A stretch of DNA of 36,855 bases from Conexivisphaerales archaeon (GCA_049509455.1 JBEKZX010000012.1:1-36855), one strand, 5' to 3'; shown: positions 6,330 to 33,883, numbered from the stretch's first letter. The notes: generated by a model from the letters alone, not told the origin. Numbers and translations: made by a program.

Positions 6330-6467
6330 GTGAAACGGGTTTGTGGATAGTATAAGTTCCATCGGCTATCTCGGTGTGTTACTAGCAGAAATTCGGCAAC
6401 ATCTTCCAAATCTTACATCCGACTTTTAAGACTTGAACCCGTAATGGGTATCAATACCGCCCGCCCC
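6330..6467 (+). repeat. Dispersed repeat, copy 1 (box A + core + box B)
   Basis: GTGAAACGGGTTTGTGGATAGTATAAGTTC at 6330; CCAAATCTTACATC at 6406; GACTTGAACCCGT at 6430-6442; ends CCGCCCGCCCC. Confidence 0.85.
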
Positions 6468-6693
6468 AAACGACTAGTACATTGGATCAAGGACGATGGG
6501 CTCGCTTCCCAGCAGCTTCAGGAAGGAAATGACCTTCGAGGCCCTGAGCGTCCCTGTGGTCCGCCCGGGCCATCCCGTTCCAGGAGATGGTGTAGAAGAT
6601 GACGTACTTGGTTCCTCCGCGAAGTGGGTATTTCGACGAAATGATTTGCGCCAAAGTCAATCTTATTAGCTGCCTGAGACCTCATTGTTTCGG

Positions 6694-8109
6694 ATGTCCA
6701 CTCCTTCGGCACTAGACGGAACACGAGACGGGCCGGAACCTCTGAAGAGCCGCGGGGAGACTCACCCTGTCGAGGAACGCAGGACCGTCTCCGAGAAGCT
6801 AGTCGCCCAAATCGATTCCTCCGCGGTACCCGAGACTCTTACTTCTAGTCCGGATGGCAAACGGGTGGCCTATGTTGCTGGAGTTGGCACGAAGCAATTT
6901 GTGGTGGTCGACGGCAAGGAGGGAAAACAGTACGATGGCATCGGCAAGGGGATTCTCGAGCTCGCGTCTGACTTCTATCTGGGGATACCCGTCTTCAGCC
7001 CGGACAGCCAGAGGGTGGCCTATGTGGCTCGGGAGGGAGAGAGGTGGTTTGTCGTGATCGATGGAAAGGAGGAAAAGCAGTACGATGATCTCGGTCCTTT
7101 GACTCTCACCTTCAGTCCGGACAGCAAACGGGTGGCCTATGTGGCCCGAGTTGGCACGAAGCAATTTGTGATGGTGGTCGACGGCAAGGAGGGAAAGCAG
7201 TACGAGTGGATTGGCGGTCTCGTATTCAGCCCGGACAGCAAGCGTCTGGCTTACTGGGCAGGAGTCGGCGGAAGGCGGGTTGTTGTGGTAGATGGGGAAG
7301 AGGGGGAAGCCTACCCCGGCGTCGCCCAAGGCATGGGTCCCTCCTTCCTGCCGGATATCCCATTCTCGTCGGTTCCGGGCTGGTGGGTAGCCAGTACCTA
7401 CTGCGAGATCTCTTTTAGCCCGAACAGCCGCCGGTTCGCCTACGTTGGCAGCCGTGGGGCAAAGTGGATTGTCGTGGTCGATGGCAAGGAGGAGAATGCC
7501 TACGACTGGATTGGCGATGGCCTTGTCTTCAGCCCGGACAGCCAGAGAGTAGCCTGTTATGTTGGTCAAGGCGAGGGGCCCGAGTATCACCATTGCGTCG
7601 TGGTCGATGGCAAGGAGGAGAATGCCTACGACGAGGTCGCCGAGGGAAGCCTACGCTTCAGCCCCGACGGCCGCCGGTTCGCCTACGTTGCCAAAGAGTG
7701 GCCAAAGTGGTTTGTCGTGGTCGATGGTAAGGAAGGGAAGCACTACGATTCACTTAGCACGGGAGATCCGGTTTTCAGTCCGGACAGCAGGCGGGTTGCC
7801 TATCACGCTGTTGCCTATCACGCTCTTGTGGGCGAGGGCGAGAGGATTTTTGCAGTGGTCGACGGTAAGGAGGGAAAACAGTACAAGGATATGGGTGATC
7901 TCGTCTTCAGCCCGGACAGCAAGCGTCTGGCTTACTGGGCCGGAGTCGGCGATAAGTGGCTTGTCCTTGTAGACGACAGTGAAGGCGCACCGTACGATGA
8001 CCTTGAAAGTACGATCGTTTTCGATTCCGCCACCGCTTTTCACTACCTGGCTGCTAGGAAGACTGCAAACGGAAAAGACATTCTTTGCGTCGCGGAGACG
8101 ATTAATTGA
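6694..8109 (+). CDS. WD40/TolB-like (PD40-type) beta-propeller repeat protein; 5' end uncertain
   Basis: Nine countable repeats of FSPDSKRVAYVA..G.K.FVVVDGKEGKQYD; no signal peptide visible. Confidence 0.8.
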   Translation: MSTPSALDGTRDGPEPLKSRGETHPVEERRTVSEKLVAQIDSSAVPETLTSSPDGKRVAYVAGVGTKQFVVVDGKEGKQYDGIGKGILELASDFYLGIPVFSPDSQRVAYVAREGERWFVVIDGKEEKQYDDLGPLTLTFSPDSKRVAYVARVGTKQFVMVVDGKEGKQYEWIGGLVFSPDSKRLAYWAGVGGRRVVVVDGEEGEAYPGVAQGMGPSFLPDIPFSSVPGWWVASTYCEISFSPNSRRFAYVGSRGAKWIVVVDGKEENAYDWIGDGLVFSPDSQRVACYVGQGEGPEYHHCVVVDGKEENAYDEVAEGSLRFSPDGRRFAYVAKEWPKWFVVVDGKEGKHYDSLSTGDPVFSPDSRRVAYHAVAYHALVGEGERIFAVVDGKEGKQYKDMGDLVFSPDSKRLAYWAGVGDKWLVLVDDSEGAPYDDLESTIVFDSATAFHYLAARKTANGKDILCVAETIN

Positions 8110-8199
8110 ATTATGGCTGACGCCTCACCGAGAACGGACTCGTAGATTCGGACGCAAAGCAATATATCTCTGTGGCCGCATAAAGTAAATCAGAGGAAT

Positions 8200-8811
8200 A
8201 TGGCTGACCTGGTGTTTACGCCGGAACCGACGAGGATGGGGGTTCCTCACCTTTCAAACTTGGCTACGGATGTGCCTGACAATTGCGGCATCTATGTTTT
8301 CTATGTGCCTGGAATTATAGGTTATGAAGATCTGAAGAAGGCCTTGCTGGCTTGGGGGGAGTCCGCCGGCACGAACATCTTTGTCGGCCTATGGGATCTG
8401 AGTGCTGTATCTCTCAAGGATGTTTTGGGATATTTCCAAATCAAGGGGAGTCCCGCCGTGGCTGTTCTTGCAAACCCTAAGAACTCAACTGATGGACAAT
8501 TCCCGCCTCGAGTAGCGTACGCTAGAATCGATAATCCTATTCTTCTCAATGACTTGGCTAGGGCCGAGGATTGCATAAACCGAACATGCAACTTGTTCTT
8601 ACAAGGAAGAGTCAAAGATGCTCTTTCGAGCGCGAGAAAAGACCAATACAAGGCGAGCCTAAACTTTTACCTCGGAAAGATAGGTGCTGATGTCCTCAAA
8701 TTCCTAAAAGACGTCAACGTGACATTCGACATACTGAAAGGCACGATAACTTTGTCCGCTCACTCAGATTCCAAGACAGACTCTAAGACACCATCACCTA
8801 AGGGCAAATAG
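8200..8811 (+). CDS. Hypothetical protein (possible thioredoxin-like fold without CxxC)
   Basis: 203-aa ORF with an RBS-like AGAGGA upstream and more A/T-ending codons than its neighbours. YFQIKGSPAVAVL loosely resembles a thioredoxin cis-Pro loop (weak). Confidence 0.6.
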   Translation: MADLVFTPEPTRMGVPHLSNLATDVPDNCGIYVFYVPGIIGYEDLKKALLAWGESAGTNIFVGLWDLSAVSLKDVLGYFQIKGSPAVAVLANPKNSTDGQFPPRVAYARIDNPILLNDLARAEDCINRTCNLFLQGRVKDALSSARKDQYKASLNFYLGKIGADVLKFLKDVNVTFDILKGTITLSAHSDSKTDSKTPSPKGK

Positions 8812-8890
8812 GGCAAAGCCTTCGGGCATCCTCGAGCCCCAAGCTCTTTGGGGCCAATACCAGCGGTGGGTGGCCTACCAAGAATGACGA

Positions 8891-9077
8891 CCGGCTCGAA
8901 CAACGCTACCCACGCCCCTATCCCAATTGGCGCATGACTCTGGAAAATGAAACAGGTGTGAGGATAATGCAAGTTCTACTGACGCAATGATGCTTTACTA
9001 TTGAAAATACTGTATTAGCCCCCAAATCTTATATCAAAATTTGGTGACTTGAACCCGTTCAGGTCTAGAGCCCGCCC
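8891..9077 (+). repeat. Dispersed repeat, copy 2 (block L + box A + core + box B)
   Basis: L: CCGGCTCGAACA...CCCCTATCCC (8891-8946); A at 8947; GACTTGAACCCGT at 9046-9058. Box B (9022-9077) is 52/56 identical to 19810-19865. Confidence 0.9.
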
Positions 9078-9095
9078 AATCATGTGCCTCGTCCT

Positions 9096-9908
9096 TCAGT
9101 CGAGGAGGGTCCTCTGTCCGGGCGTCGCCTGCCCCACCATCCTCCCCCTCCACCCCATAGGGTTCCGGCCCATCAACTCCATGAACTGGTTCACCGTGGC
9201 GGGGCTGAAGCCGGCGAAATGATTGTTGGCGAACACGTAGCCCCGACGAATTGACGCTTCTACCTTGGACAGCCGCTCCGACCACTTCACCATCTCGGCC
9301 GTCCTGTCCTTCTGCAACTTGCCGAAGTCCTCCTCCCTGATTGAGCGGTCCCCGATGAGCCTCAGGTAGACGATGGACGCAGTCACCCTGTCCGGGACCT
9401 TGACGTAGGGGATCTCAGACCAGACGAGAGTCATCCCCAGCTGCTCGAGGAGGGCGTAGACCCTGTCGTTGAACCACGACGCATGCCTGAACTCGATGGC
9501 GTATTGAAGGTCGGGGGGAAGGGACCTCAGGAAGTCCTCCAGCCTTCCGCCACTCTCCTGATATGAGTACGAGGGGGGCAACTGAACCAAGACAGGCCCC
9601 AGCTTCGGACCTAGCAGCCTGATCGTCCTGAGGAACCTGTCGGATACCCCTTCGCAACCGACGAACCTCCTGTCGTGCGTTATCTCCTTGGGCATCTTAG
9701 CGGAGAACAGGAACCCTTCCGGCACGGCCCTCCTCCAGAGCTCGACCGCCCACGAGGAGGGGATGCGATAGAAGGAGGAGTCGATTTCGACCGTGTCGAA
9801 CACCGCGCTATAGAGCTTCAGGAAATCCCTTGGCTTCGTATCCTTGGGGAAGAACGGCCCGACCCACGACGAGTAGCTCCATCCCGAGCAGCCCGCTCGA
9901 AGCTCCAT
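9096..9908 (-). CDS. DUF72 family protein
   Basis: GCSGWSY, VEIDSSFY, FSAKMP, LVQLPPS, YAIEFRH, YLRLIG and FANNHF motifs. Confidence 0.92.
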   Translation of the reverse strand: MELRAGCSGWSYSSWVGPFFPKDTKPRDFLKLYSAVFDTVEIDSSFYRIPSSWAVELWRRAVPEGFLFSAKMPKEITHDRRFVGCEGVSDRFLRTIRLLGPKLGPVLVQLPPSYSYQESGGRLEDFLRSLPPDLQYAIEFRHASWFNDRVYALLEQLGMTLVWSEIPYVKVPDRVTASIVYLRLIGDRSIREEDFGKLQKDRTAEMVKWSERLSKVEASIRRGYVFANNHFAGFSPATVNQFMELMGRNPMGWRGRMVGQATPGQRTLLD

Positions 9909-10126
9909 CCGAGGCTCGGTGCGCCTCCTTCTATATCAGCACGCGGGCATTTGTCCGGGATAGACTTGACGCGGGAAGTGTTTTTGCTCCCTCCTTTCTT
10001 GTGACGTGACTGTGGGCCTGCAAGGAGCTGAAGAACGAAGAGAACTCCGACCGGGACACGAAGCAGCCGAAGAAGGCCCTGGACCCCAAGGACAGGGACG
10101 CAATCGAAGTCTAGCTATCGAATATG

Positions 10127-11494
10127 TCACTTTTGGGCGACAGCACTGGAAGGAGTGGTCGATTGCGAGTCCTGTGGATACTCAGGAAACTTCGACATAT
10201 TCATGACGATCACGTGTCTCCGGAGCTTCCAGACCTTCGCGAAGAAGAGGATCGCCGCCTTCTCAAATCCCTTGAACCAATTCCACGCCTGCGAGACTAC
10301 GGCCAGGATGGTAATACCGGCGGCCGTTCCAATCGATGTTACGTCAGTCCAGAGGGTCTTTGCGTTCGTCGGGTTCAGGATGTCCTTTAGAGTCTGCTTC
10401 CCCCATGGGAGGGAGTTGAACCATATGTAGACCACATACACGATCGTGACGGCCGCACCCACAAGGGCTAGGGCGGCGAGTATGAGGGAGCCGTAAAGGC
10501 AGGCGCTTCCCCCTACATTCAGGATGTCCCTAGGCGAGTCCGCCCCCACGAGAAGGTCCGACCAGGTCTGGATGTTTCTACGCAGCTCATCATTAACAAC
10601 CCCAAGCCTCTTGGCTCTTCCCTCCGCCGTCTCGGACATGTGGCTTATCCTGTCGATGACTGAACGCTTGCCCGCGTACGCATAGAGGTCATTCTCGATG
10701 ATATCGTAGGCTCCCTCTGGCAGAACGCTCCGCAATTCAGAAAGGCAGCCCCGCAACCCCTCGGCCGTCTCCGTTAATTTGTCGCCCTCGCGGGGGTGCT
10801 GAAGCCTCGAACAGTATTGCCCAAAGAGAACCGCGTAGTAGGCGTATGGAAGTTGCGCCCTGACGGCGCCCAAGATCTGATCATAGTCGGAATCGAACTG
10901 CTCCTTGGTTATGACGGCGGAAGCCCCATTAGCGGACGGCGACGGCTGGGCGCCGCTAGAGGAAGATTGAGAGGCGGAGCCCGCAATCGAGATCAAGTCC
11001 TTGGCCATCTGCTCTAGATTTGCTGAAATCGACGTGAGGTCTGGGGTCTTTGTCTCGCCCGACGGCTTGTCAGGCTTCCCTTCCACGGATCTGCTGAAAG
11101 CCACCTGGGTCGTGATATGGTCAAGGTCGTCCGACACACCGTCGGCCCCCACCGCTGCCCATTCCGACACCAAGTTGGCGTAGGTGGAGAGCCAGGGCAG
11201 GAGCCTGTTTCTAACCTTTGCCAGTTCGGCTTTGTCCTTGGACGAGGGCTTCGGCTGCTGCCCATCGGGAACCGACTTGGGAACCGACCAAAGTTCCCCC
11301 TCTTGGTAGTAAAGTCCCCGGCAGGCCTCATAGGACCACCCCGTCATGAAGCCTTGGTAGAGGGAGACGGAAGCATCAGAAGTCTTCCCATCCGAAGACG
11401 AATCAGAAGTCCCATCCGATGAACCATCATCCTTCCCCTTTCCGCTTCCCGCCTTCTTCCCATCCTTTCCGGCGCCGGCGTCCTTCTTTGCCAA
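10127..11494 (-). CDS. Hypothetical protein with a low-complexity N-terminus and two C-terminal TM segments
   Basis: 455-aa open frame (TTG start); K/G/S/D-rich first ~45 aa; hydrophobic segments LYGSLILAALALVGAAVTIVYVVYIW and IGTAAGITILAVV. Confidence 0.65.
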   Translation of the reverse strand: MAKKDAGAGKDGKKAGSGKGKDDGSSDGTSDSSSDGKTSDASVSLYQGFMTGWSYEACRGLYYQEGELWSVPKSVPDGQQPKPSSKDKAELAKVRNRLLPWLSTYANLVSEWAAVGADGVSDDLDHITTQVAFSRSVEGKPDKPSGETKTPDLTSISANLEQMAKDLISIAGSASQSSSSGAQPSPSANGASAVITKEQFDSDYDQILGAVRAQLPYAYYAVLFGQYCSRLQHPREGDKLTETAEGLRGCLSELRSVLPEGAYDIIENDLYAYAGKRSVIDRISHMSETAEGRAKRLGVVNDELRRNIQTWSDLLVGADSPRDILNVGGSACLYGSLILAALALVGAAVTIVYVVYIWFNSLPWGKQTLKDILNPTNAKTLWTDVTSIGTAAGITILAVVSQAWNWFKGFEKAAILFFAKVWKLRRHVIVMNMSKFPEYPQDSQSTTPSSAVAQK

Positions 11495-11871
11495 TCTGAT
11501 TAATGCTCTGGTGCATGACGATTAAAACATTTCGGGAACGCGCATAGACTGCGTTGTAGGATTATAGAAGAATGCCGGAGAACCGCCTTTTGGTGCAAAT
11601 ATAGAGCTGGAAGGGCGGTATTCATGAAGGAATTCGGAGGTAGCTCTTCCGCGGTCGGTCACCATGATAGGTACCTGATGGAATATGCAATATATATATC
11701 TTCAGGCAGGAGGATATGTATGATGGGAATATATCTGGTAAGAAGGTACCATTTTGCCCCTCGGCATCATCACCGCCTCCCTGGCGGCGCACGCTAGCTT
11801 CGCGGTGGAGGTCGGCGGTTCGAACCGCCAAACCTTTTAGCGGAGGACGAGGAATTGTATGTGACCGCACG

Positions 11872-12765: not shown

Positions 12766-12971
12766 GGGGGCCTCCCTAGGTCGGCAGGACCCTCAGGGAG
12801 GTTCCGCCGCATCCGAGGCTTGAACGCTCCTCCGGAGGTGGGCGCCGGCGTATGACGTCAATGCCGTTCTATCAACCTCTCTTGGTAAGGAATGCACAAA
12901 GGCCGCCGGCGGCCGTCAACTTCCCACACCATGGCGTTGACATGACGATAAGAAGCTTGGAGGACTACCTC

Positions 12972-13736: not shown

Positions 13737-13737
13737 A

Positions 13738-14898: not shown

Positions 14899-14919
14899 GC
14901 AGCGAGATGGTGCTTAGAT

Positions 14920-15675: not shown

Positions 15676-15732
15676 CCCGCAGAGATCTCCGCCCACCCTA
15701 AGGCTAATGACAACTCGGGCAGCGAATTCGAC

Positions 15733-16227: not shown

Positions 16228-16429
16228 GGCCCAACAGGGGCTAGGTCTCGCAAATCAGCCTTTTGGTCATGGGATAATATCATGCAATTCCATTTCGGCC
16301 ATGGGCCTTCTCCTTCTCCTGAAAAATCGAGAATCCAATCGACTGATGATTAAGCATCCACATGGAGCCGTATCCTCCCGAGTCCGTACTAGTTCAAGCC
16401 AAGGCAAACCAATCGCCCAATGACTATCA

Positions 16430-16496
16430 CTCTTTTGGGATTGAACATAGCATCCTATGCCCCTATCCCGGCCGGAGAGAACGATTCAGGTAGCAA
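16430..16496 (+). repeat. Dispersed repeat, isolated linker + block L
   Basis: 16443-16477 is 31/35 identical to 19686-19720; 16443-16457 is identical to 33869-33883; CTCTTTTG at 16430-16437 also occurs at 33850-33857. Confidence 0.85.
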
Positions 16497-16531
16497 ACCC
16501 TTATCATCTTGGCCATAGTAATTATGACCGT

Positions 16532-19500
16532 ATGAGGACCTGTAGGGCTCTGGTCCTTGTCCTCTCTTTCTTCTTGTTAGCTTCACCCCTCTTCGCTTGC
16601 ATTTCGTACGCTCAGCCTCCCCCAAGCGGAGACTGGGTAGTGACAGGAAATGAACTAATCCAAAGTGAATCAATTGTCCTAAACGGTAACCTGACCGTTC
16701 AATCGGGAGGAAACCTGTCACTGGAAAATGTAGTGCTCACAATAAACAGTCAGTACTCTGGTCAAAACGGTATCCTAGTCCAGCCTGGAGGTTCTCTCTA
16801 CATCTACAACAGCGATATCACAGCTGGAAACTCGGCTAACAGGTACACATTTGTTGTAAACGGAAACAACTTTGTCATTGAGAACAGTCAGGTGTACGGA
16901 GTTGGATCGTGTGGTAGCGCCCAAGCCTCGAACAATCTGTTCAATTGCCTTCCCCGTGGTGAAGAAAATCACCAATTCACCGTCATTACTGCTGGCATGG
17001 TCGTGGAAACAGATAACGCCCTGATCGAGAACAACCTGTTCTCTCAAAATGCCATTGGTCTGATAGTCGGCGGCTCTAGTGTAACCGTAAAAGGCAATAC
17101 TTTTCAGTCCAACGACTATTCCGCACTTGGACTCATCGACAGCTCAAACGATTTGATTACCGACAATACATTTGAACAGAATCCAGCTAACCTCCAACTA
17201 TGGATTGCTTATCTAGGAAATGCCAATAATTCGCTAATCGAATACAATACACTTCTGACTGAAAACCTTCCGGCAGTGCCTACGCAGGCAAATCCTGCTT
17301 CTTGGACGGAAGGCTTTGGGCCGCAAAGCCGGTGCGATGGCCTTTTCTTAGATTCTTCCTATAGTAACATAATAACTCACAATAATATAACCGCACAAAA
17401 TGTTGCTGTGGCTCTGGAGGGTTCTGACAATAACACTGTTTCAGACAATATTCTAGCTGGCGGTGAAGATGGAATCAACACCGGCGGACATGCTGTCGAC
17501 TCAACCATCGAATCTAACACGATAACTGCTTATGGTACTGCAGCCATAACGTTAATGCTTGCACACGGTAGCGTGGTAGCGAACAACAGTATTTCAACGG
17601 TTGCGGCGTTAGGAATACAGATTGACCACACTTCAAACAGCACCATCCTCAACAACAACATTACCATGAATCAAGTCGGAGATGTGGTCCTATATCTCTC
17701 ATCATCCAATAATGATGTCGTCGCAGGCAATGACCTATCGGGCGCCCTTCAAGGCATCTTGATCTACGACTCTTCTGACAACGGCACCATATACGACAAC
17801 CAAGTTAGCGCCTCTTACAGCATCGCGATCGAAGGGTCATCCTTGAATCGTATTTATCAAAATGACTTTCATGACTTGAGCCCACCAGTAGGAGGTCCCT
17901 CCGACAATGGGAATAATTCGTGGTCTCTTGGCAAGATCGGCAACTATTGGAGCTACTACACGCCAGCAAATCTCAACAGCTGCGCCTATAACTCTCCTTC
18001 TTGCTTTGTAGGCAGTGCCACTTACAATCGGACGAGCATACCTCCGAACGGTACGGAGTTCTACTCCGAGCAGACTCCATTTACTATCTATCAAGTACCG
18101 ATTACGCAACCCCAATTCGTCACATTTCCCATAACCTCAGAACCAGCTGTGGTGCCGGGGAACGTAATAGTGAATCAGGTCGTGCAGATGAATTCAGGCC
18201 ACCTCCCAAGTACGCAAGGAAACTTGACGATTGTAAACAGCACTTTAATCTTAGGCAGCGAAGGCCAGGTGAGTTTGGGGGGCCCAAACTTGACGATAGA
18301 TATCGAGAACAGCGAAATCCTCGATGCTGGCTACGGTTCAGGGATAGGATTAGGTGTCCCCGAAACTTCCCCCACTTCGTCGCTTGTGATAATCAATAGC
18401 ACGTTGGATGGAGTCTCTCTTCAGGATCTAGACGCAATTAACATAACCGTAGAGAATAGCATCATTTCAGATTCTCAACAAGGCTACGGCATAACAATAG
18501 CCAATGCAGACTACGTGAATATTGTGAACAATACTTTTTCGTACGACTTCGCTGGAATCAGGACGAGTGGCTCGGAAGAAAACTCTGGAAGCGTGATAAT
18601 TTCCGGAAACACAGTCTTGTATCCGGTTGGTTCAGGTATCGTTGTAAACGTCGGTCAAGCGTCGAATCCCTATACACTTGTCTCCGGCAATATAGTGACT
18701 GGCGCTTGGAATGGTGGTATAGCTGTTAGCGTCAATGCAACAATTGCCGGGAATATCATTTCAGACAGTCGCAGTCCGATCCAAGTGTCGAATTCTTTTG
18801 ATAGCCTGATTGTAAACAACACGATCTCTAACTCGTTCACAGGCATATGGTTCAGTCAGTGTGGGAGTGACCTCGTCTACCACAACAATTTCATTAACGA
18901 TTCTGTATTTCCTGGGTACTTGCCCGTTCAAAGCTTCGGCGGCTTCCCAAACACCTGGGATTATAACGGACAAGGGAATTACTGGAGTTCTTACAACGGA
19001 ACGGACGCCAACTTGGATGGAATCGGGGACACCCCATTTGTAATTCCCGGCGTTGTTCAGGACAACGATCCGATCATGCAACCTAATGGTTGGCTTACAA
19101 TGTTCTATCTGACGCTGCAAACAAACCTCTCAACGTCAACTACGTTCCAAATCAATGGAACGAGCTTCAGCATCGGACAGAGTGGTAGCGTTAAGCTTCC
19201 GCTAGGCTACATCGCTAACTACAGCATCTCCTTCGCACAAGACGTCCCTGTCTCGGAAGGCATTAGACTTGGCTTCCTCCAATGGAGTGACGGAACACCT
19301 TCTGCAAGCCGGATTCTCAGCCTGTCCGCCAATTCCACCGTGCAAGTCAGCTACATGAATCAATATCAGCTGACGTTAGGGATCTCCCCCTCTGGCAAAG
19401 GTTCCACAGAGCCCTCCGGCAGCAGCTGGATTAACGAGTATACAGTCGTGAACATCACGGCGACGCCTGCACCAGGCTGCAACTTCACCGGATGGAGCGG

Positions 19501-19693
19501 CGACGCTACCGGGACGGCAAATCCAACGCAGGTAACCATGGATGGCCCGAAGAGCATCACCGCCAACTTCCAAGGCACCCCCGGTCCCGAGTCCCCGTGG
19601 GTTCTGGCATCCTTCGTCATCCTGATCGCCGTGCTCCTGGCTGTGGTCGTCGTAGTCAGACATAGGCGTCAGCAGAGCCCGGTTCGAACATAG
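16532..19693 (+). CDS. Large surface protein with right-handed parallel beta-helix (NosD/CASH-type) repeats, a C-terminal InlB-B-like repeat and a TM anchor
   Basis: Signal peptide from ATG 16532; many N/I/S-rich PbH1 repeats; NosD-type GNYWS.Y.G.D...DGIGDTP motif; PAPGCNFTGWSGD...MDGPKSITANF repeat; GPESPW + TM helix + RHRR. Confidence 0.88.
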   Translation: MRTCRALVLVLSFFLLASPLFACISYAQPPPSGDWVVTGNELIQSESIVLNGNLTVQSGGNLSLENVVLTINSQYSGQNGILVQPGGSLYIYNSDITAGNSANRYTFVVNGNNFVIENSQVYGVGSCGSAQASNNLFNCLPRGEENHQFTVITAGMVVETDNALIENNLFSQNAIGLIVGGSSVTVKGNTFQSNDYSALGLIDSSNDLITDNTFEQNPANLQLWIAYLGNANNSLIEYNTLLTENLPAVPTQANPASWTEGFGPQSRCDGLFLDSSYSNIITHNNITAQNVAVALEGSDNNTVSDNILAGGEDGINTGGHAVDSTIESNTITAYGTAAITLMLAHGSVVANNSISTVAALGIQIDHTSNSTILNNNITMNQVGDVVLYLSSSNNDVVAGNDLSGALQGILIYDSSDNGTIYDNQVSASYSIAIEGSSLNRIYQNDFHDLSPPVGGPSDNGNNSWSLGKIGNYWSYYTPANLNSCAYNSPSCFVGSATYNRTSIPPNGTEFYSEQTPFTIYQVPITQPQFVTFPITSEPAVVPGNVIVNQVVQMNSGHLPSTQGNLTIVNSTLILGSEGQVSLGGPNLTIDIENSEILDAGYGSGIGLGVPETSPTSSLVIINSTLDGVSLQDLDAINITVENSIISDSQQGYGITIANADYVNIVNNTFSYDFAGIRTSGSEENSGSVIISGNTVLYPVGSGIVVNVGQASNPYTLVSGNIVTGAWNGGIAVSVNATIAGNIISDSRSPIQVSNSFDSLIVNNTISNSFTGIWFSQCGSDLVYHNNFINDSVFPGYLPVQSFGGFPNTWDYNGQGNYWSSYNGTDANLDGIGDTPFVIPGVVQDNDPIMQPNGWLTMFYLTLQTNLSTSTTFQINGTSFSIGQSGSVKLPLGYIANYSISFAQDVPVSEGIRLGFLQWSDGTPSASRILSLSANSTVQVSYMNQYQLTLGISPSGKGSTEPSGSSWINEYTVVNITATPAPGCNFTGWSGDATGTANPTQVTMDGPKSITANFQGTPGPESPWVLASFVILIAVLLAVVVVVRHRRQQSPVRT

Positions 19694-19865
19694 CACCCTT
19701 TGTCCCTATCCCGGTCGGAGCACGATTCTAGCAAGTGAAACGGGTATGAGGATATTACAAATTCGCACCGGTCTCTTTGGCGTTCTAGGGCGTATAGCAA
19801 CTATATTGTCCAAATCTCATATCGAATTTTGGTGACTTGAACCCGTTCAGGTTTAGAGCCCGCCC
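19679..19865 (+). repeat. Dispersed repeat, copy 3 (block L + box A + core + box B)
   Basis: L begins CCGGTTCGAACATAG, overlapping the stop codon of the upstream gene; A at 19735; GACTTGAACCCGT at 19834-19846. Confidence 0.9.
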
Positions 19866-20258
19866 AACTCTGCCGACGGTTGGAAGAGACATCTAGTCAC
19901 AGCGATTCTGCAACTCCGAGGCGAGGATTCATTTGATACATGAAGTGCCTGCTGTCCTTCTCACGGAAGCAGATCCCGGCCGAAACCAGAGGCGGCTAGA
20001 CGAAGTCGTCTCATCAAAGCTTGGCCTGCCCGATTGGCGCAGGAGTTCGTCAATTCGGCACCGTTACAGGGGAAAGGAGGATCATCTAGACCAGGGGTAT
20101 AGGACCAAGAGCTTCCCCCCATAGCGCAACGCTGATATAGGTAAACGTTCCCACTTACTGGGGGTTCATTGAGGGCGGACTCCAGGCCGGAGCCAATAGA
20201 ATTCGCCTAGACCTGGGGCTCTGGTTTGGCTTCTTGTCGGAGGGCCCCTTTCTCTCAT

Positions 20259-21342
20259 TAGACCTTAGTCGTAATTGAGCCATTGGTCTGTCCGTTTAGG
20301 CTGAGCCCGGTTTTCTGTCCTGGCATATCGCCTTCAGGACGATGCTGAGCTACACCAGACTGTCCAGGACACCATCGACGTTCAGGTCGTTCACCGGGCT
20401 GGAGGTGCCAGAGTTCGACGCATTGTACGCGAAGGTCGAAGGAGCCTACCCCTCCTTCGAGGAGAAGAGGCTCTCGAAGGGAGGTGACAGGAAGAGGGAG
20501 GTGGGCGCCGGCCATCCGTTCAAGCTGTCCCTGCGGGACAGGCTCCTCATGCTCCTGGCCTACTACAGGCTCTACGTCACCTCGACGCTGGCGGGGTACC
20601 TGTTCGACCTGGGCCAGACGAACGTCCTCAAGGACATAAGGATGCTCGAGCCCATGGTGAGGGGGTGCGTGCCGCTGCCGAAGAAGGTGCATGAAGTGAC
20701 GAGGAGGCTGAGGACCATCGACGAGGTCGAAGAGTTCTTCCCCGGCTTCAAGGCGTTCGTAGACGCCACCGAGCAGGAGATCCCCAGGACGAAGGACCCG
20801 AAGAAGAGGAGGACCCACTATTCGGGCAAGAAGAAGAGGCACACCGTCAAGACGCAGCTCACCGTCAACTCCAAGGGGCTGATAGTCCATAAGACAAACC
20901 ATGCGAGGGGGAGGAGGCACGACCTCTCCATCTACCGGCAGAGGCACCCGGACCTCCCGAAGGAGGTGGAGCAGGATTTCGACAGGGGATACGACGGGAT
21001 CAAGAAATACTTCCCAGAGATGAAGTGCGCCATCCCGTTCAAGAGGAGGGGTCCAGGGAAGGGGCACAGGGGAGAGAAGGCGAAGGAGCTCACGCCCGAG
21101 CAGGAGGCGTTCAACGCGGAGCTCTCGAAGGAGAGGGTCGTGGTGGAGCACACGATATCGAGGATGAAGAAGTTCAGGATCATGGCGGACGAGTTCAGGA
21201 ACAGGCTGAGGTGCTACGACGCCATGACGGACATCGTGGCGGGGCTGGTCAACCTCAGGATACTCGGGAAGGAAGGATTCTGACAGGGTCGACAGGACGT
21301 TAGCGGGGCGGCTTCATAGAGGATAATTACGACTAAGGTCTA
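20259..21342 (+). mobile_element. IS5-family (ISL2-like) insertion sequence, apparently intact
   Basis: Perfect 18-bp inverted repeats TAGACCTTAGTCGTAATT (20259-20276) and AATTACGACTAAGGTCTA (21325-21342); the outer TA may be the target duplication. One internal transposase ORF. Confidence 0.9.
20342..21283 (+). CDS. IS5-family DDE transposase (HTH_Tnp_4 + DDE_Tnp_4)
   Basis: FVDATEQ, YSGKKKRHTVK, DRGYDG and RVVVEHTISRMKKFRI motifs. Confidence 0.92.
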   Translation: MLSYTRLSRTPSTFRSFTGLEVPEFDALYAKVEGAYPSFEEKRLSKGGDRKREVGAGHPFKLSLRDRLLMLLAYYRLYVTSTLAGYLFDLGQTNVLKDIRMLEPMVRGCVPLPKKVHEVTRRLRTIDEVEEFFPGFKAFVDATEQEIPRTKDPKKRRTHYSGKKKRHTVKTQLTVNSKGLIVHKTNHARGRRHDLSIYRQRHPDLPKEVEQDFDRGYDGIKKYFPEMKCAIPFKRRGPGKGHRGEKAKELTPEQEAFNAELSKERVVVEHTISRMKKFRIMADEFRNRLRCYDAMTDIVAGLVNLRILGKEGF

Positions 21343-21467
21343 TTGACATATATCACGCGATCTTCGGCGATAGGGATTTGCCTCCCGTCGGGTTGAAAGT
21401 ACAACAAATGTTGATATCTAACCCCTGCGCCGAAAACAAGAGTCCTGTGAAGCCTGTAGAGCCGATG

Positions 21468-23293: not shown

Positions 23294-23294
23294 G

Positions 23295-24368: not shown

Positions 24369-24389
24369 GGCCGGGAAGATGGCTATAGG

Positions 24390-24399
24390 TAAATATAAA
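24390..24399 (-). promoter_or_regulatory. Putative archaeal TATA box for the methyltransferase operon
   Basis: Minus strand TTTATATTTA lies 22-31 nt upstream of the ATG at 24368, which is leaderless-type spacing. It falls in the 66-bp divergent gap. Confidence 0.5.
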
Positions 24400-24434
24400 C
24401 GATTCCGGCCTATGGCCTAGGCTGGGGTCTACGA

Positions 24435-26276: not shown

Positions 26277-26310
26277 ACTCTCCAAGATGAGCTGGCATCG
26301 AAGGCTGTGC

Positions 26311-28127: not shown

Positions 28128-28189
28128 CGCGGCCTCATCCTCGCTCCGGCGTCATATTACAAGTGCACCGATGTAAAAGAAGATGCTCC

Positions 28190-29785
28190 CTACTCCGGTG
28201 GGATCTCCTTGAATATCTGGTTCACCAGTATCCCTCTCTTGAGGTTGTACGACCGAACCGCGTAGTAGATGACCGCTCCAGCGATGACCACCCCCGCAGT
28301 GATGACGAGTCCGCTGTCTACCGCGTATGACCATACGCTCTGGCCCGCCGTCTGGCCGAATCCGCTGCTGAAGCATCCGAAGAAGTATATCGGAACCATT
28401 AAGCAGATCAATAGGACGCTCATGGGCAGCAATGCCCTCTTCCACGGCACCGCTTCAAAGATTTGCTTCCTCCTCAAAGCGATGATTATGCCGCAGATGG
28501 CCGGGAAGATGAGAGCTGTGAACGAGAGCAGGTCGCTCCACCAGAAGTATACCACCGGGTTCAGCCCCTCGATGGTGAAGTAGAAGAATATGGCGGCCCC
28601 CACGCCCTCTACTACGAAGATCTTCCACGGAACCCCATGCCACATGTTCGTCAGTGACTTCGGTAACATCCTGTCCATCCCCCAGTAGAGCATCTGCCTG
28701 TTGATGTAAAGCATGCTCGCAGGGACGATGGCCCAGACCGCAGCCAACCCGAAGATTGCCATGAGGACCCAAAGCGGCCAGAGGCTAGGAATCGCGATCT
28801 GGGCCAGCAGGCCGTTTATGGGAGGCAGGCCCAATGGCGCGCTGTTCGTGTTCCAGTACAGATAGCTCCAGCTGGCCACAGCTTCGTACCCGAGGATCTT
28901 CGCGAGCCCCCAGACGTACAGGATTTGGTAGACGAAGTACACCCCGAGCATGCCGAAGATCGAAAGCGAGAGCGTCTTCTTTATGTCCCCGCGAAGCTCC
29001 CCCGCGATGGAACCCGGATACATGCCGCCCAACGCGGCGAAGATCACGTAACCCATGAGACCGGCGAGGGCGGCGTAGGTCAAAGTCCCCGTGAGGCTGA
29101 AACCGTTCGCCGCGGCGGTCTGTTCGATTTGGCTGACGGACATGCCCGTCATTGTCTGAAGGTTGGATGCGAAGTTGGATGCTCCCGCTGCCGCGCCTAT
29201 GAGCACCCCCGCAAAGCCCAAAATGCCAAGGACGCCTATGGCCACGAACAAAGCGTACATCCTCTTCGGCGGGATTAAGCAGAAGAGCATGCCGAGTATG
29301 ACGGTCAACATCCCGATTATCCAAGTCCATGGCGAAGAGGAAATCCATGCAGCGCTTCCCGTCACACCGGCAATGTTCAGCATGCCGACGATAAGCCTCA
29401 GGTTTCGTATCATGATGGCGCCCATGTAACCCCAGAGGGGGATCCAGCCCCATATTATCATCCAGGAGTTGATCCAGCCCCAGAATGGTCCCATGACCCT
29501 CGATGGGACGACGTAGTCGGCGCCGCTACGAGGCATAGGCGTCACGATCTGTACGTACACGATTCCCAGCACTACGTCAACCGCGATCATGATTACAAAG
29601 AACCAAAGCAGCGAAGGGAATCCGAGGATCAACGGTGCCGAAATCAGGCCCAGGTAGGCTACCGACCAGCCGAATTTCGTGCCCATCGTATCGATCCAGT
29701 TGAAGAACAGAGCCTTCACAGAATTGGCCTCTTTCACGAGCCCCGAAGACTTCCTCGCGAACATTTTGTCTTCTTGATCTGTCAT
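28190..29785 (-). CDS. APC-superfamily amino acid/amine permease
   Basis: FARKSSGLVKE N-terminus, MPRSGADYV, GELR and MDRMLPK motifs; about 12 TM segments. Confidence 0.9.
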   Translation of the reverse strand: MTDQEDKMFARKSSGLVKEANSVKALFFNWIDTMGTKFGWSVAYLGLISAPLILGFPSLLWFFVIMIAVDVVLGIVYVQIVTPMPRSGADYVVPSRVMGPFWGWINSWMIIWGWIPLWGYMGAIMIRNLRLIVGMLNIAGVTGSAAWISSSPWTWIIGMLTVILGMLFCLIPPKRMYALFVAIGVLGILGFAGVLIGAAAGASNFASNLQTMTGMSVSQIEQTAAANGFSLTGTLTYAALAGLMGYVIFAALGGMYPGSIAGELRGDIKKTLSLSIFGMLGVYFVYQILYVWGLAKILGYEAVASWSYLYWNTNSAPLGLPPINGLLAQIAIPSLWPLWVLMAIFGLAAVWAIVPASMLYINRQMLYWGMDRMLPKSLTNMWHGVPWKIFVVEGVGAAIFFYFTIEGLNPVVYFWWSDLLSFTALIFPAICGIIIALRRKQIFEAVPWKRALLPMSVLLICLMVPIYFFGCFSSGFGQTAGQSVWSYAVDSGLVITAGVVIAGAVIYYAVRSYNLKRGILVNQIFKEIPPE

Positions 29786-29822
29786 AGAGCGCCTTTCCTC
29801 TCCGTTATTGATGTCAGGGTAA

Positions 29823-29831
29823 TTATATAAA
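29823..29831 (-). promoter_or_regulatory. Putative TATA box upstream of the APC permease
   Basis: Minus strand TTTATATAA, ~38 nt upstream of the ATG at 29785. Confidence 0.45.
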
Positions 29832-29929
29832 CTTACATATAGCGGGGTCTATCTATTCGTCCGTACGACCTCCAAGGTAGACAGTCGCGTGGGCCCGGAC
29901 GGTGCACGTGCTCGGCCGAACGGGCAGCC

Positions 29930-32005
29930 TTATGCTTCCCTGGTGACCCTGCATTGGATGGCCCTGAAATTAGGAGAGCCCGTCACAGGATCGACTTCGT
30001 CGAGGTCTGTCAAGGCGTTGCAGTTGGCCTCTTCCCAACCGTGGGGTATGCTGACACAACGTGGGTGAATGTCGTCGGTAAGTCTGGCCTTCATCCTGAT
30101 GCTGCCCTTCCTCGTCCTGATCAAGACGAACTCCCCGTCCGCTATTCCCCGTTCCCTGGCCGTCCTGTAATGGATCTCGGCCAGTGGCTCTGGCATGGTC
30201 GCCCTGAGGCTGGAAAGCTGGCGCCATGACGAATGACTGTATGCGAGTGACTTCGCTCCGGTGGTCAGCAGGAGGGGGAAGTCGGAGGCGTCCTGGCCAG
30301 AGGTCTCAGCTAGGTTGCTGATGACCGGAAGCGCATCGTACCCGTATTTGTGGAGCACCTCTGAATACAACTCCACCTTTCCAGATGGCGTCGAGAATCC
30401 GTTCTCCTCGTAGCTTCTGTATCTGAGAGCCGGTCCGCAAAGGATGCCAGAAGGATGCCTTTCAAGCTCGGCTACAGTAAGTCCTGTCGGCTGTAGCTGC
30501 ATGTCCACAGCTTCTTCGATGCTATCCCAAGGGAACTCGTCATGGTAGCCCATCTTCTTCGCCAGCTCAAACCAGAACTTCCAATCCGGCCAGCATTCCT
30601 CGGCAGGCTCCACGGCCTTGATACCCCACATGGCATAGGAGCCTGCGCCTCCGTCTCCCAGCACGTCACCACCATATGTGTAAAGTCTCGGGGTCTCCAA
30701 AAACGTCGCGGCCGGAAGTACGATGTCGGCCAGCCTAGCCGTCTCCGACATGAATACGTCGATCACCACCAGGAAGTCCAGTTTCTTGAACGCCTCCACC
30801 GTCTTCTCGGTTTCACACCACGTCAGAGCCGGGTTGCAGTAGTCGACAATTGCGGCCCTTATGGTACGGCGCTTGCCTTCCAGAATCGCTCGGATGAGGG
30901 TTCCAGAAGGGACGGAACCGAGCATCAAAGTGTGTAATGGATATCTCTCAGCCCCGAGTGGCTTGCTTCCAGAAGGTAACCTTTCAGATAGCGAGATGTC
31001 GGCGAGCCGCAGCCCATGGTCGAAGACGTTGCCACCTGGAACGTCCAGGTTCCCCGTGATAGCCCGCAGGATGGCGGTCGCACGGAGAGTCTGAAATGAG
31101 TCACGGGTGACATCTAGGGCATTCCCCAATTCCATATACGCTGGCTTCAGGGTCGCATACGCCCTGGCGGCCTCCTCTATGATTCCCGCGGGTACGGTGG
31201 TAATCTCTTCGACCTCCTTCGGCTGATAGGCTTTCACGTGTTCCTTCAGCTTGTCAAAGCCTGACGTCCATCTCTTGACGAACTCTTCGTCGTAGAGCTT
31301 CTCTCCGATGATCACGTTGAGCATTCCCAGCGCGAGAGCCCCATCGGTCCCTGGCAGCAGCTGGAGATGGAGGTCGGCTTTCGCTCCCGCGGTCGTCGTC
31401 CTTGGGTCGATGACGATGAGCTTCGCTCCTTTCCTCTTAGCTTCGGAGAAGTCCTCCCAGCTTACAGGATTTGACGCCGGCGGGTTGAACCCCCACAGCA
31501 CTATGCATCTGCTCTTCCTGATATCTCGGGAGCGAAAAGCTTGAGCGCCGAACGTCAAAAGGTCGGCCATTACCTTGGGACCGACACATAGCTCACTCAT
31601 GGCGCCTAGGTTCGGGGTTCCAAACACGTTCATGAACCTCTGGATGAACGGATCAACGGTGCGCATTTCAATTACGCCAGGAATGCACGCCAGCGATTCG
31701 GCGCCGTGCCTTTCCTTCAGACTTTTCAGTTCTGCGGCTATGACGTTCAACGCTTCCTCCCATGAAATGCGCCTCCAAGTTTCGCCTTCTCTTTTCATCG
31801 GATGCTTCAGCCTGTCAGGGTGATACAGCATCTCTTTCGCAGCCAGCGCCTTCGCGCACACCCTTCCCTCGTTCAGGGGAGAATCTTCCATGCCCTTGAT
31901 GTCGACGACCCTGCCGTCCGTAACATGGACTTCGAGTCCACAACGGCGCGAGGATGAGCACTGACACATCCCACAATACGTCTTCGCTACTGAATCCATG
32001 GTCAC
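29930..32005 (-). CDS. Mo/W-bis-PGD oxidoreductase of the DMSO reductase family, acetylene-hydratase-like clade
   Basis: N-terminal Cys cluster, LYHPDRLKHPMKR, RFMNVFGTPN...LCVG, IDPR, PGTDGALALG, TPSGKVELYS and C-terminal molydop-binding domain. No Tat signal and no in-frame TGA. Confidence 0.88.
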   Translation of the reverse strand: MTMDSVAKTYCGMCQCSSSRRCGLEVHVTDGRVVDIKGMEDSPLNEGRVCAKALAAKEMLYHPDRLKHPMKREGETWRRISWEEALNVIAAELKSLKERHGAESLACIPGVIEMRTVDPFIQRFMNVFGTPNLGAMSELCVGPKVMADLLTFGAQAFRSRDIRKSRCIVLWGFNPPASNPVSWEDFSEAKRKGAKLIVIDPRTTTAGAKADLHLQLLPGTDGALALGMLNVIIGEKLYDEEFVKRWTSGFDKLKEHVKAYQPKEVEEITTVPAGIIEEAARAYATLKPAYMELGNALDVTRDSFQTLRATAILRAITGNLDVPGGNVFDHGLRLADISLSERLPSGSKPLGAERYPLHTLMLGSVPSGTLIRAILEGKRRTIRAAIVDYCNPALTWCETEKTVEAFKKLDFLVVIDVFMSETARLADIVLPAATFLETPRLYTYGGDVLGDGGAGSYAMWGIKAVEPAEECWPDWKFWFELAKKMGYHDEFPWDSIEEAVDMQLQPTGLTVAELERHPSGILCGPALRYRSYEENGFSTPSGKVELYSEVLHKYGYDALPVISNLAETSGQDASDFPLLLTTGAKSLAYSHSSWRQLSSLRATMPEPLAEIHYRTARERGIADGEFVLIRTRKGSIRMKARLTDDIHPRCVSIPHGWEEANCNALTDLDEVDPVTGSPNFRAIQCRVTREA

Positions 32006-32136
32006 AGCCTCAAGGGAAGGCCTGTCTTTCTACGTAAATCGAATATTTTACCATATCGGATGCAGTTGCTAAGCTCCGGAAGCCATGCTCCGTATAGGAT
32101 GGGAATGTAATCAAAAGGGTTGACAGAGTCGGCAAT

Positions 32137-32276
32137 ATGACTTCGGTCGTCAAGACCTTCTGCGGCATGTGTCAGTGTTCGTCATCCCGTCGTTGTGGTC
32201 TTGACATGTACGTCTCGAATGGCAAGGTCGTTTCAATCAAAGGCATTCGGGAATCTCCGCTGAACGAGGGGCGGGT
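32137..32276 (+). pseudogene. N-terminal fragment of a paralog of the Mo/W oxidoreductase
   Basis: MTSVVKTFCGMCQCSSSRRCGLDMYVSNGKVVSIKGIRESPLNEGRV aligns with residues 1-49 of 29930..32005, then homology stops abruptly. Confidence 0.85.
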
Positions 32277-32514
32277 CCTCCTGGTACGCGTAGCCCATCC
32301 TCCCAAAGAACTTCGGAATCCTCTTTGCGAAACGAGAGTAGCTCAAGAAGTCGATGTCGGAAAAGACCTCTCTCCGGAGAGAGCTCCAGAGAGCGGCATA
32401 GTCTCTGCTACGGAGGTAGATCGGGATGCCGCCGAGTAGCCGGAGAGTCAGATCCTCCTTGGCTGCCTCCCGGACGCATCTTAGAGCCTCATTGACGAAG
32501 ACATCAATGGACAA
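32277..32514 (-). pseudogene. N-terminal fragment of a paralog of the nucleotidyltransferase-fold gene
   Basis: DVFVNEALRCVREAAKEDLTLRLLGGIPIY...WSSLRREVFSDIDF...FFGRMGYAY aligns with the 26311..27180 product and is truncated at the junction with the Mo-enzyme fragment. Confidence 0.85.
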
Positions 32515-33062
32515 GGATTCGTTCAGAGACGCATAACAGGTTGTCTCCCGGGCTGGCCGTATTTATCTTCTAAAGACGTGTCCGAAGCACTCGCGCGGGC
32601 CTGGGAGGATTCCTCGTCAAGGCTCTCCCCGGCGTCCTATCAAGGACTTGACGAAGACCCCCTTTCCCGCAAGGGCCTCGGGAACTACGTCTACGGGCTC
32701 CCAGATGATCCTGCAGTCGGGACCCATGACCAGCCTTATCTCGTCGTCTACGTGCCGCTGCCAGGCGATGTCGGTCTCATCGGAGTCGAGGAGGACACGT
32801 GAGGGAAGAGAGTAGCGTACAAGGACGTGCACACGCTCCACGAAGCCTAGCAGAAGAGGGCCGACAAGCTGTCTAGGGACGAGGCCGCCAAGAAACTGGG
32901 GAACAAAGAGAGCCCCAGATGACCCCCATAATGCAGTTGTCTTGTGATTACGAATCCGCTGTTTGGACCCAATCAGGCCTTAATCCTTCCGGATACGAAT
33001 AGTCTAATTGGCAGCCCGGGAATGCTTCTGGAAGGCTGACGAAGCAATGGCTTGTTTAACGG

Positions 33063-33380
33063 CTACCGTTTGGGCACAGTTTTGCTTTGCGACGGGTTTT
33101 GCAGCCAGTCGTTAAGCTCCTCTTTGATTCCTGCGAGACCTTTCGCCATTTGCTCTGTTGTTGTGATGATTTCTTCAGGCGAGCCAGAAACGAAGCCACC
33201 CTTGAAAAAGACGTCAAAGCATTTTCGACCGTCCCTTTCGTCCAACAGCACAACGAACCCCGGTTCTCCTGCTGAACCATCGCACAGGTTCGCACTGAAT
33301 GCCCTTACTTCGCCTTTCGCTCCCAACCATTCAAGTCCTCTGTCAGCGCTTTCCTTCTGCTCCAGAACTTCACGTAACAT
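33063..33380 (-). CDS. Hypothetical protein
   Basis: Open frame with a plausible ATG at 33380 (MLREVLEQ...); no recognised motif. Confidence 0.4.
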
Positions 33381-33386
33381 GGTTAT

Positions 33387-33605
33387 GTGAACGATGGAGG
33401 GGCATTTATGGGTTTGGTTCCCCTTCAATTGGCGGGCTTGGCGGCGACGGCCCTCTACCTAGCCAGTACCATGACTCCAGAGGAGGGGAGTCAGGTCACG
33501 CAGAGGGAAATCGCCGAGGCTGCCGCTGTCACGGAAGTCACCATAAGGAACAGATACAAGGGGCTGAAGATGGCGCTAAAGATCCAGGAGCCGACGGATG
33601 CGTAG
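33387..33605 (+). pseudogene. tfb: Transcription factor B (TFB) C-terminal fragment
   Basis: [11 protein letters not shown]...[23 protein letters not shown] matches the end of the second cyclin repeat of TFB/TFIIB. The Zn ribbon and first cyclin repeat are absent. Confidence 0.8.
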
Positions 33606-33701
33606 GCGTGGTTAGTCCACCCCCCAGCTTCCTGAATAGCTTGATGCGGCGAGAGGGTAGAGCGGATGCGTATCGACTATTCTAGGGCGGCTTTATGGCG
33701 G

Positions 33702-33883
33702 ATGGAACGGGTATGAGAATACTACAAGTTTCTATTAGGCTATTTGATATACCGGGAATAAATTACCGCTGGTTTTTCCAAATTTCATATCGGGGTTTAA
33801 GACTTGAACCCGTAATAGGTCTAAAATCCCGCCCGGCCCCAGGTCGCTGCTCTTTTGATAGCATAGGAGAACATAGCATCCTA
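33702..33883 (+). repeat. Dispersed repeat, copy 4 (box A + core + box B + linker + start of block L)
   Basis: A at 33702; GACTTGAACCCGT at 33801-33813; shares the exact 21-mer TTTAAGACTTGAACCCGTAAT with copy 1; followed by CTCTTTTG and GAACATAGCATCCTA. Confidence 0.85.

Follow-up and report, generated by a model that had tools for sequence, protein, structure and literature searches.

A genus-specific intergenic repeat with conserved boxes and chimeric copies in a Conexivisphaerales archaeon

Introduction

REP/BIME (E. coli), BOX (Streptococcus pneumoniae) and ERIC are non-coding repeats of ~100-150 bp composed of modular boxes; they are intergenic and lineage-restricted, and act as recombination substrates. 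They favour gene 3' ends and convergent gaps, contain palindromes or form hairpins, and are found in either orientation. To our knowledge, intergenic repeats of genome plasticity (REP/BIME, BOX, attC) are well described in bacteria and hardly in archaea. Here we analysed a repeat unit of ~135 bp that is present four times on one strand of a 36,855-nucleotide stretch of DNA from a Conexivisphaerales archaeon (GCA_049509455.1 JBEKZX010000012.1:1-36855); this whole stretch is called the window, and positions are counted from its first letter.

REPs have a cognate RAYT transposase (PMC6006769). In attC arrays and CALINs, archaeal ones included, co-oriented sites of ~60-140 bp lie on the 3' side of unrelated genes, often with no integrase nearby (PMC9668308). 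Elements of the IS200/IS605 type have no inverted ends and no target duplication, carry same-strand sub-terminal hairpins, and show a strand bias tied to replication direction (PMC5027513, PMC3119063, PMC3597680). An earlier note on the window had described the four copies as conserved boxes around a drifting core that mark the boundaries of accessory modules, and had proposed a protein-binding or recombination site or a structured RNA scaffold.

Results

The four copies in the window were aligned over ~135 nt; conservation was good at the ends and poor in the middle. The earlier placement of four same-strand copies was confirmed by this alignment, by a repeat finder, which also recovered box A (family D10) and box B (D9 and D17) at these sites, and by a covariance model, which was scored at every position of the window and matched the four copies (107-127 bits) and nothing else. 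The copies, the parts of copy 1 and the immediate neighbours are as follows.

6331-6463, + strand: repeat copy 1, covariance-model match of 127.5 bits
6331-6359: box A of copy 1, followed by the variable core
near 6406-6419: TATA-like box B1 of copy 1
6430-6442: 13-mer of copy 1
6447-6458: small palindrome of copy 1, GGTATCAATACC
4172-6163 (- strand) and 6685-8109 (+ strand): divergent genes around copy 1
8948-9078, + strand: repeat copy 2, covariance-model match of 109.7 bits, box B2 of subtype 2 (TCAGGTCTAGAGCCC)
8200-8811 (+ strand) and 9096-9908 (- strand): orphan gene of low GC content at third codon positions (GC3) and DUF72 gene, forming a convergent gap around copy 2
19736-19866, + strand: repeat copy 3, covariance-model match of 107 bits, box B2 of subtype 2
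16457-19693, + strand: low-GC gene of a NosD/beta-helix surface protein (Pfam), its stop 43 nt before copy 3; an IS5-like insertion sequence (IS) lies 390 nt downstream of the copy
33703-33835, + strand: repeat copy 4, covariance-model match of 111.7 bits, box B2 of subtype 1
33299-33685 (+ strand) and 33895-35595 (- strand): 3' fragment of a gene for TFB (TFIIB-like transcription factor) and glycogen-phosphorylase-like gene, forming a convergent gap around copy 4

The edges of the unit were defined by aligning 12 copies with their flanks: conservation begins abruptly at RTGAAAC and stops at CCGCCCGG. The left part of the consensus comprises a conserved box A (RTGAAACGGGTATGAGGATAATACAAGTTT) and a core of ~45 nt that defines subfamilies; the right part comprises an AT-rich, TATA-like box B1, a T-tract, and a conserved right box (GACTTGAACCCGTAATA-GGTAT..ATACC-GCCCGG) with a small palindrome. 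Mean pairwise identity was 0.62 in box A, 0.39 in the core, 0.54 in B1 and 0.69 in B2, and the T4-T6 tract downstream of box B1 was conserved in an alignment of 27 copies. GGTAT..ATAC(C) is found on the same strand in both boxes, with a 4-bp stem and a 7-nt loop in box A and a stem of 4-5 bp in box B2. The sole palindrome is the 12-mer in box B2, and it is lost in subtype 2. Boxes A and B2 can be read as loose direct repeats of one motif (AAC-SSG-TA..AGG.AT.AATAC), with 16/20 aligned positions in agreement, 2 gaps, and a shuffle p of 0.03. The GC content of the element is 0.35-0.52, against 0.57 for the window and ~0.57 for the genome.

The 13-mer GACTTGAACCCGT occurs in the window at 6430, 9046, 19834 and 33801 only, on the + strand only, which is 100, 99, 99 and 99 nt after the box A starts as the earlier note had set them; dinucleotide-shuffled windows contained a mean of 0.05 matches, and four matches were reached in 0/100 shuffles. 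The two subtypes that had been distinguished are real: box B is 93% identical over 58 nt between copies 2 and 3, and TTTAAGACTTGAACCCGTAAT is common to copies 1 and 4. The conserved boxes at fixed spacing were upheld as well, but the notion of a simply drifting core was not, in that cores fall into subfamilies that are common to different species at non-homologous loci. A change of gene content or codon style at every copy had also been proposed. The change of codon style was sharp at three of them, GC3 rising from left to right from 0.52 to 0.85 at copy 2, from 0.53 to 0.90 at copy 3 and from 0.47 to 0.71 at copy 4, so that these copies have low-GC3 sequence on the left and high-GC3 genes on the right; at copy 1 GC3 went from 0.76 to 0.66 without a sharp change. 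Over all copies, flank GC was 0.559 on the left and 0.576 on the right, which was not significant (p = 0.09).

We searched the whole genome assembly of this archaeon (G000; 2.05 Mb, 140 contigs, 95.5% complete) and four other genomes of the same genus (G001-G004). A profile search (nhmmer) and the covariance model gave 12 copies in G000, with four on the window contig, three within 24 kb on contig C1, and one each on C70, C88, C78, C42 and C67. The covariance model found 2-4 copies in each of the other four, so that the repeat is present in 5/5 genomes of the genus, and it was absent from all 56 genomes (0/56) that represented 25 other genera within the family, order and class. Scanning metagenomes yielded five further contigs carrying six copies, of which two were the same as copies already known; the genome, its relatives and the metagenome contigs together contain 27 distinct copies. 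No two copies at different loci are near-identical, and most pairs are below ~80% overall. Small changes were seen between strains: a 6-nt tandem duplication (CATTCT CATTCT) in one copy, at G000:C1:25536-25547, is missing from a strain variant on a metagenome contig, and another copy common to those two strains differs at 7/16 positions of the left tip of box A against a background of 96% identity.

The earlier note had taken the family to be non-coding and unnamed, and our searches agreed. No open frame is shared, as on both strands every frame has stops in most copies, and column variability lacked a period-3 pattern (p = 0.87). A decayed protein-coding gene was therefore rejected, there being neither a common open frame nor a codon-position bias. 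at gathering score nothing in the window matched Rfam, and at E <= 10 none of the matches in ten loci overlapped the unit; ARAGORN found 0 tRNA or tmRNA genes in the window; and phage, plasmid and viral-contig collections contained no match to the repeat. On the reverse strand the 13-mer resembles a tRNA T-arm. A loose pattern scan matched many bacterial genomes because of this resemblance and was uninformative; the unit was not present in its three archaeal matches.

The structured RNA scaffold that had been suggested gained no support. Such an RNA would have conserved 5' and 3' parts around a variable middle, and some observations point towards it: ACGGGT in box A is complementary to ACCCGT in box B, the C70 copy has a double change in this pair (ATGGGT/ACCCAT), and the long-range helix together with a 3' hairpin (GGTA..TACC) shows 8 double-sided changes versus 2.0 in shuffles, a weak excess, since kinship alone can exceed shuffles. 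However, single copies folded no better than shuffles on either strand (minimum free energy z-scores of -0.7 to +1.1), RNAalifold on 12 copies returned the 6-bp box A/box B pairing as the sole helix, and a scan of all column pairs in 23 copies returned helices of 4-6 bp only. Box A paired with the box B of its own copy no better than with that of another copy, on either strand, and the strand signals conflict, the long-range helix (14 A.C versus 3 G.U) indicating the minus strand and the wobble pairs of the 3' hairpin the plus strand. The core showed no guide-like complementarity to the flanks of its own copy, Rfam was silent even at E = 10, and the GC content is far below that of the genome. 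If the boxes are loose direct repeats of one motif, the complementarity of ACGGGT and ACCCGT would need no RNA. A structured RNA is thus unsupported, and we regard it as highly improbable. We read the unit as a discrete non-coding module of DNA under constraint, ~135 bp long and specific to the genus.

Chimeric copies were found within this module. Distance matrices computed by segment (box A, core, B1, B2) correlated poorly (r = 0.08-0.42), and nearest neighbours changed from one segment to the next. Box B2 of subtype 2 occurs together with box A of four different lineages, and two G004 copies that are 94% alike in box A have different B2 subtypes. Copy 4 and the copy at G000:C70:860 are 84-92% identical over 250 nt of left flank and through box A, to unit position ~45, and ~35-40% identical thereafter. 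The left part of copy 1 is unrelated to that of the copy at G004:C3:523499-523637, but the two match on the right from AGACTTGAACCCGT onwards (position ~96 of the unit, ~6426 of the window); this match (G004:C3, ~523350-523540) is 77-83% identical and extends to at least 6615, covering most of the 200-nt right flank compared. When all copies were compared with each other together with 500-nt flanks, five one-sided pairs were obtained, each with one flank and some or all of the element in common; their breakpoints lie at ~45, 81, 96 and, twice, the right end. At the break at 81, a metagenome strain departs from its own C1 orthologue and joins the C88 locus; since this break is between strain-level variants, the event is recent. 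Orthologous copies in strain variants were otherwise stable within colinear blocks. Each half of the unit travels with its own flank, and the chimeric copies are direct evidence of recombination within the repeat. With breakpoints this varied, homologous recombination or gene conversion is a better fit than a single site-specific crossover. The earlier suggestion of a recombination site is accordingly supported by the chimeras and by the halves that keep their own flanks, but its res-like, site-specific form is not, the breakpoints being at several positions.

The position of the copies relative to genes was determined for 23 of them. Convergent gaps hold ~14/23 copies, compared to a random-orientation baseline of ~1/4 that is an assumption and was not derived from this genome, and the left end follows the 3' end of a gene in ~18/23. 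The other copies lie in tandem gaps along the direction of the genes (4-5 copies) or in divergent gaps (3), with 0 in tandem gaps against the genes. In several cases the whole gap is filled by the unit. The flanking proteins are mostly unrelated, save a few pairs of orthologues or paralogues. To the right of copy 1, the flank at 6464-6612 is a piece from the 3' end of a minus-strand gene (...KYVIFYTISWNGMARADHRD...); it is repeated on C27, C42 and at three sites in G004, which implies that copy 1 was once also in a convergent gap.

Several other repeats adjoin the copies. Paralogues of TFB form a multi-copy family (C70, C102, C20, C39, C122), and full genes or 3' fragments of it are directly left of several units (such as G000:C70:1-762 and another locus at 1707-2660, - strand); the fragment in the window, 33299-33685, is 77% identical in nucleotides to this family and has no Pfam match of its own. 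A repeat of ~40 nt (GGWTYGAACATAGCAYCC...CCCTATCCCGGYCGGAG) is located at 8893-8932, 16438-16477, 19681-19720 and 33869-33888. It precedes copies 2 and 3 by 15 nt, follows copy 4 at a distance of 34 nt, and flanks the NosD-like gene on both sides. It is also found on other contigs and beside an NHL-propeller paralogue in G004:C5, and homology to G004:C10 starts exactly at 16438. Finally, 31860-31999 and 32137-32276 form a 140-nt inverted duplication (71%), whose second arm is a Molybdop_Fe4S4 fragment (9e-8) of a molybdopterin enzyme gene; this duplication is further gene debris in the intergenic DNA of the island.

The orientation of the unit was uniform on every multi-copy contig: 4/4 on the window contig, 3/3 on C1, 4/4 on G004:C3 (within 40 kb of a 2-Mb genome), 3/3 on G001:C25, 2/2 on G002:C10 and 2/2 on a metagenome contig from a strain variant of C1. 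Wherever the loci of two genomes are homologous, these counts lose their independence. Both gene directions occur between copies, and spacing reaches 14 kb. A second repeat family shared this polarity. It is made up of a small gene without a known family (a 93-aa open reading frame, conserved from an internal Met over ~69 aa, ...KNGENSDWVTKQLKKALDPKDRDTVEV*) and many 3' fragments of it, with members in the window at 10015-10114 and 32785-32911 (+ strand) and at G004:C3:482-568 kb. There are 14 matches in G000 and 18 in G004, on a single strand per contig, and on 6/6 contigs this strand is the same as that of the ~135-bp unit. Pfam and PHROGs searches with the small repeated gene and two window orphans gave no family and one weak tape-measure match. 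The second family looks like the product of repeated integration or recombination at the 3' end of the small gene.

The copies lie at borders of variable DNA. Segments of G004 that match this genome are 90-95% identical and cover a small share of the window: 16438-19244 at 92%, 33882-35888 (G004:C8) at 95%, and a few other short pieces. Copy 4 is 47 nt, and copy 3 492 nt, outside the nearest shared block. At C67 the right gene is kept in 4/4 relatives, and the unit and all DNA leftward of it are unique; at C78 the flanks map to two different G004 contigs; at C70 they map 11 kb apart in G004; and at C88 both were found in this genome only. Where one flank is conserved in a relative, the other is not (C67, C78, C70, and window copies 3 and 4), and none of five informative comparisons revealed an empty site with both flanks joined. 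The earlier claim that the copies mark accessory-module boundaries therefore holds insofar as they are found at borders of conserved and strain-specific DNA, an association that is descriptive only.

Such borders, with the clustered co-oriented arrays around unrelated genes, the halves inherited with their own flanks and the polarity common to the second repeat, raised the question of a site-specific cassette system with integron-like logic, in which circular gene modules would integrate at an existing copy and leave co-oriented hybrid border sites. The highly conserved 13-mer could then be the crossover site. We consider this quite unlikely. The breakpoints are at four positions (~45, 81, 96 and the right end) and not at one, there is no attC-like hairpin, and tyrosine, serine, Y1 HUH, TnpB and IS110-type DEDD families are located on other contigs or far from the arrays, nor was any of them found in all five genomes, so that the co-occurring tyrosine, serine, DEDD or HUH recombinase for which a search had been suggested was not found. 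Matches to PF00589 were on other contigs or at least 100 kb away, with none in G003, the metagenome-assembled genomes (MAGs) being incomplete and absence thus unproven. The final 16 kb at one end of the G004 array encode an aldo-keto reductase, an AAA ATPase, an SNF2/ResIII helicase and a DUF1156 methyltransferase, and no recombinase. Because the breakpoints are spread, we rank a dedicated cassette system lower than the earlier note did. It would similarly be a doubtful step to take the units and the co-oriented 3' fragments of the small gene as border sites of an undescribed archaeal gene-cassette system that builds the variable islands of the genus without attC hairpins or IntI. The same end of the G004 array (G004:C3:569-575 kb) contains a defence-like cluster, with the SNF2/ResIII helicase (1118 aa, with a NOV_C domain), the methyltransferase of DUF1156/D12 type, and a 663-aa protein without a family.

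The earlier note had reported no recombinase in the window, which proved incorrect, as an IS5-like element encodes a DDE transposase:

20255-21346: IS5-like insertion sequence
20342-21283, + strand: its transposase, DDE_Tnp_4 (3e-25)/DDE_Tnp_1 with an HTH_Tnp_4 domain

The inverted ends of this IS are 22 nt long (20255-20276 and 21325-21346) and 95% identical, and its GC3 is 0.90. It has no covariance-model match and no similarity to the repeat, and is an ordinary IS independent of it. Genome-wide profile matches were the repeat only, with no autonomous IS among them, and the repeat is unrelated to the IS ends of this genome, contrary to what the end of a known IS would show. In the 12-copy alignment with flanks no terminal inverted repeats joined the unit ends and no flank was duplicated. 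A classical DDE-type miniature inverted-repeat transposable element was rejected, the unit having neither inverted ends nor target duplication and its ends being unlike those of the IS in the genome.

Another candidate origin is a fossil family of non-autonomous transposons, likeliest of the single-strand IS200/IS605 'peel and paste' kind (PATE-like), with the chimeras arising from later recombination. Orientation bias of IS200/IS605 elements and their short PATE derivatives have been documented (PMC5027513, PMC3119063). This origin would account for the sharp ends of a discrete unit at non-homologous loci and for its polarity, which is strictly one orientation per contig; the core subfamilies in different species at different loci, the lack of terminal inverted repeats and the GGTAT..ATAC(C) motif on the same strand in both boxes also agree with it. 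However, near-identical, young copies at different loci are missing, as are empty sites (0 in five informative comparisons). G000 and G004 each have one Y1 transposase, in a tnpA-tnpB IS605-like element whose ends carry CCCAC..GTGGG hairpins unrelated to the repeat and unmatched by its profile, and no RAYT-like Y1 gene was found apart from this tnpA; in the other three genomes, G001-G003 (MAGs 59-90% complete), no Y1 transposase was found. The box A hairpin has just 4 bp, and the shared polarity of an unrelated gene-fragment repeat is left unexplained. We judged a transposon fossil to be on the unlikely side.

The AT-rich boxes were further compared with promoters. A matrix (AAAAGyTTTTAAAC) was trained on the sequences preceding 27 tRNA genes of this genome, in which the motif begins 38-40 nt ahead of the mature 5' end; its genome-wide 99.99th percentile was 10.4 bits. 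By this matrix, box A scored 8.5-14.8 bits on the minus strand (AAAACTTGTATTATCC) in many copies, and box B1 up to ~12 bits on the plus strand. Along with the AT-rich composition, the conserved T4-T6 tract and the three copies between divergent genes, these scores suggested a cis-regulatory module, with two back-to-back promoters (B recognition element and TATA box) and a T-tract terminator, which might yield antisense or read-out transcripts or terminate convergent genes. Yet the matches, though enriched, were inconsistent from copy to copy, with the 95th percentile of composition-matched shuffles exceeded by only 8/27 of box A and 4/27 of box B1; in most copies, which lie in convergent gaps, both putative promoters face gene 3' ends; no conservation was seen downstream of either putative start; and co-orientation is unexplained. 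A cis-regulatory role is thus very unlikely to be the explanation of the unit.

Discussion

On the best reading of these results, the repeat resembles the mosaic intergenic repeats of bacteria (BIME, BOX, ERIC) more than it resembles a gene or an RNA. We tentatively favour a module that acts at the DNA level, probably by binding protein, in the manner of BIME and BOX, and whose conserved boxes provide portable homology for the exchange of segments. The boxes would be kept because a putative DNA-binding protein uses them, and would serve as portable homology because nothing else in the unrelated intergenic DNA around them is near-identical. Resolution of homologous recombination or gene conversion may then occur at the boxes, by which whole neighbouring gene segments would be swapped between loci and strains. 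A dedicated recombinase is not needed by the data.

Several points weigh against this preference. No recombinase was found near the arrays, and a binding protein for the boxes is putative. Homologous recombination on boxes of 13-30 nt is recombination on short homology, which may be inefficient in these uncultured archaea, and by itself it does not explain co-orientation over tens of kb. New copies with sharp ends at non-homologous loci are unexplained without transposition or a site-specific step, as are the conservation of the boxes and the common polarity of two unrelated repeat families across tens of kb. Boxes A and B2 are only modestly alike (16/20, 2 gaps, p = 0.03). Most gaps in these regions may be synteny breaks, and the association with borders is descriptive rather than a statistically established enrichment.

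The family has few members and clear limits, and its chimeric copies give a direct record of recombination. The islands that host it carry surface proteins, defence genes and metabolic operons, and differ even between genomes that share ~92%-identical segments. Should there be a protein partner, or a recombination step dedicated to the repeat, the family would point to a new route of gene-module exchange in uncultured archaea; if there is neither, it would still be a clean example of short conserved boxes as portable homology.

Compared to the described systems, the repeat is like PATEs (PMC3119063) in its lack of inverted ends and target duplication, in its oriented copies, in its occurrence in archaea, and perhaps in the small same-strand hairpin motifs near both ends. 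It differs from them in that it has no cognate Y1 transposase, no young copies and no empty sites, and in that the IS605-like ends of the genome are unrelated to it. With attC arrays it shares conserved ends around a variable middle, co-orientation, the separation of unrelated genes, and site sequences that are more alike within a lineage. However, attC sites are imperfect inverted repeats (R''-L''...L'-R') that form a single-strand hairpin, whereas the repeat does not fold; the GTTRRRY 3' and RYYYAAC 5' core sites are not in it, its ends in the 27-copy alignment being RTGAAAC... and ...CCGCCCGG; and its intervening genes run in both directions, with spacing to 14 kb and breakpoints at several sites. 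In contrast to REP/BIME it has no REP palindromes of 20-40 nt and no RAYT, and its host is an archaeon; unlike REP/BIME, BOX and ERIC in general, it has no stable fold, keeps one orientation per region, and numbers 2-12 copies per genome. Like them, it is extragenic, follows gene 3' ends (~14/23 convergent) and re-assorts its segments. The repeat fails defining tests of BIME/BOX-type repeats, attC arrays and PATEs alike, though it is to these systems that it is closest in behaviour.

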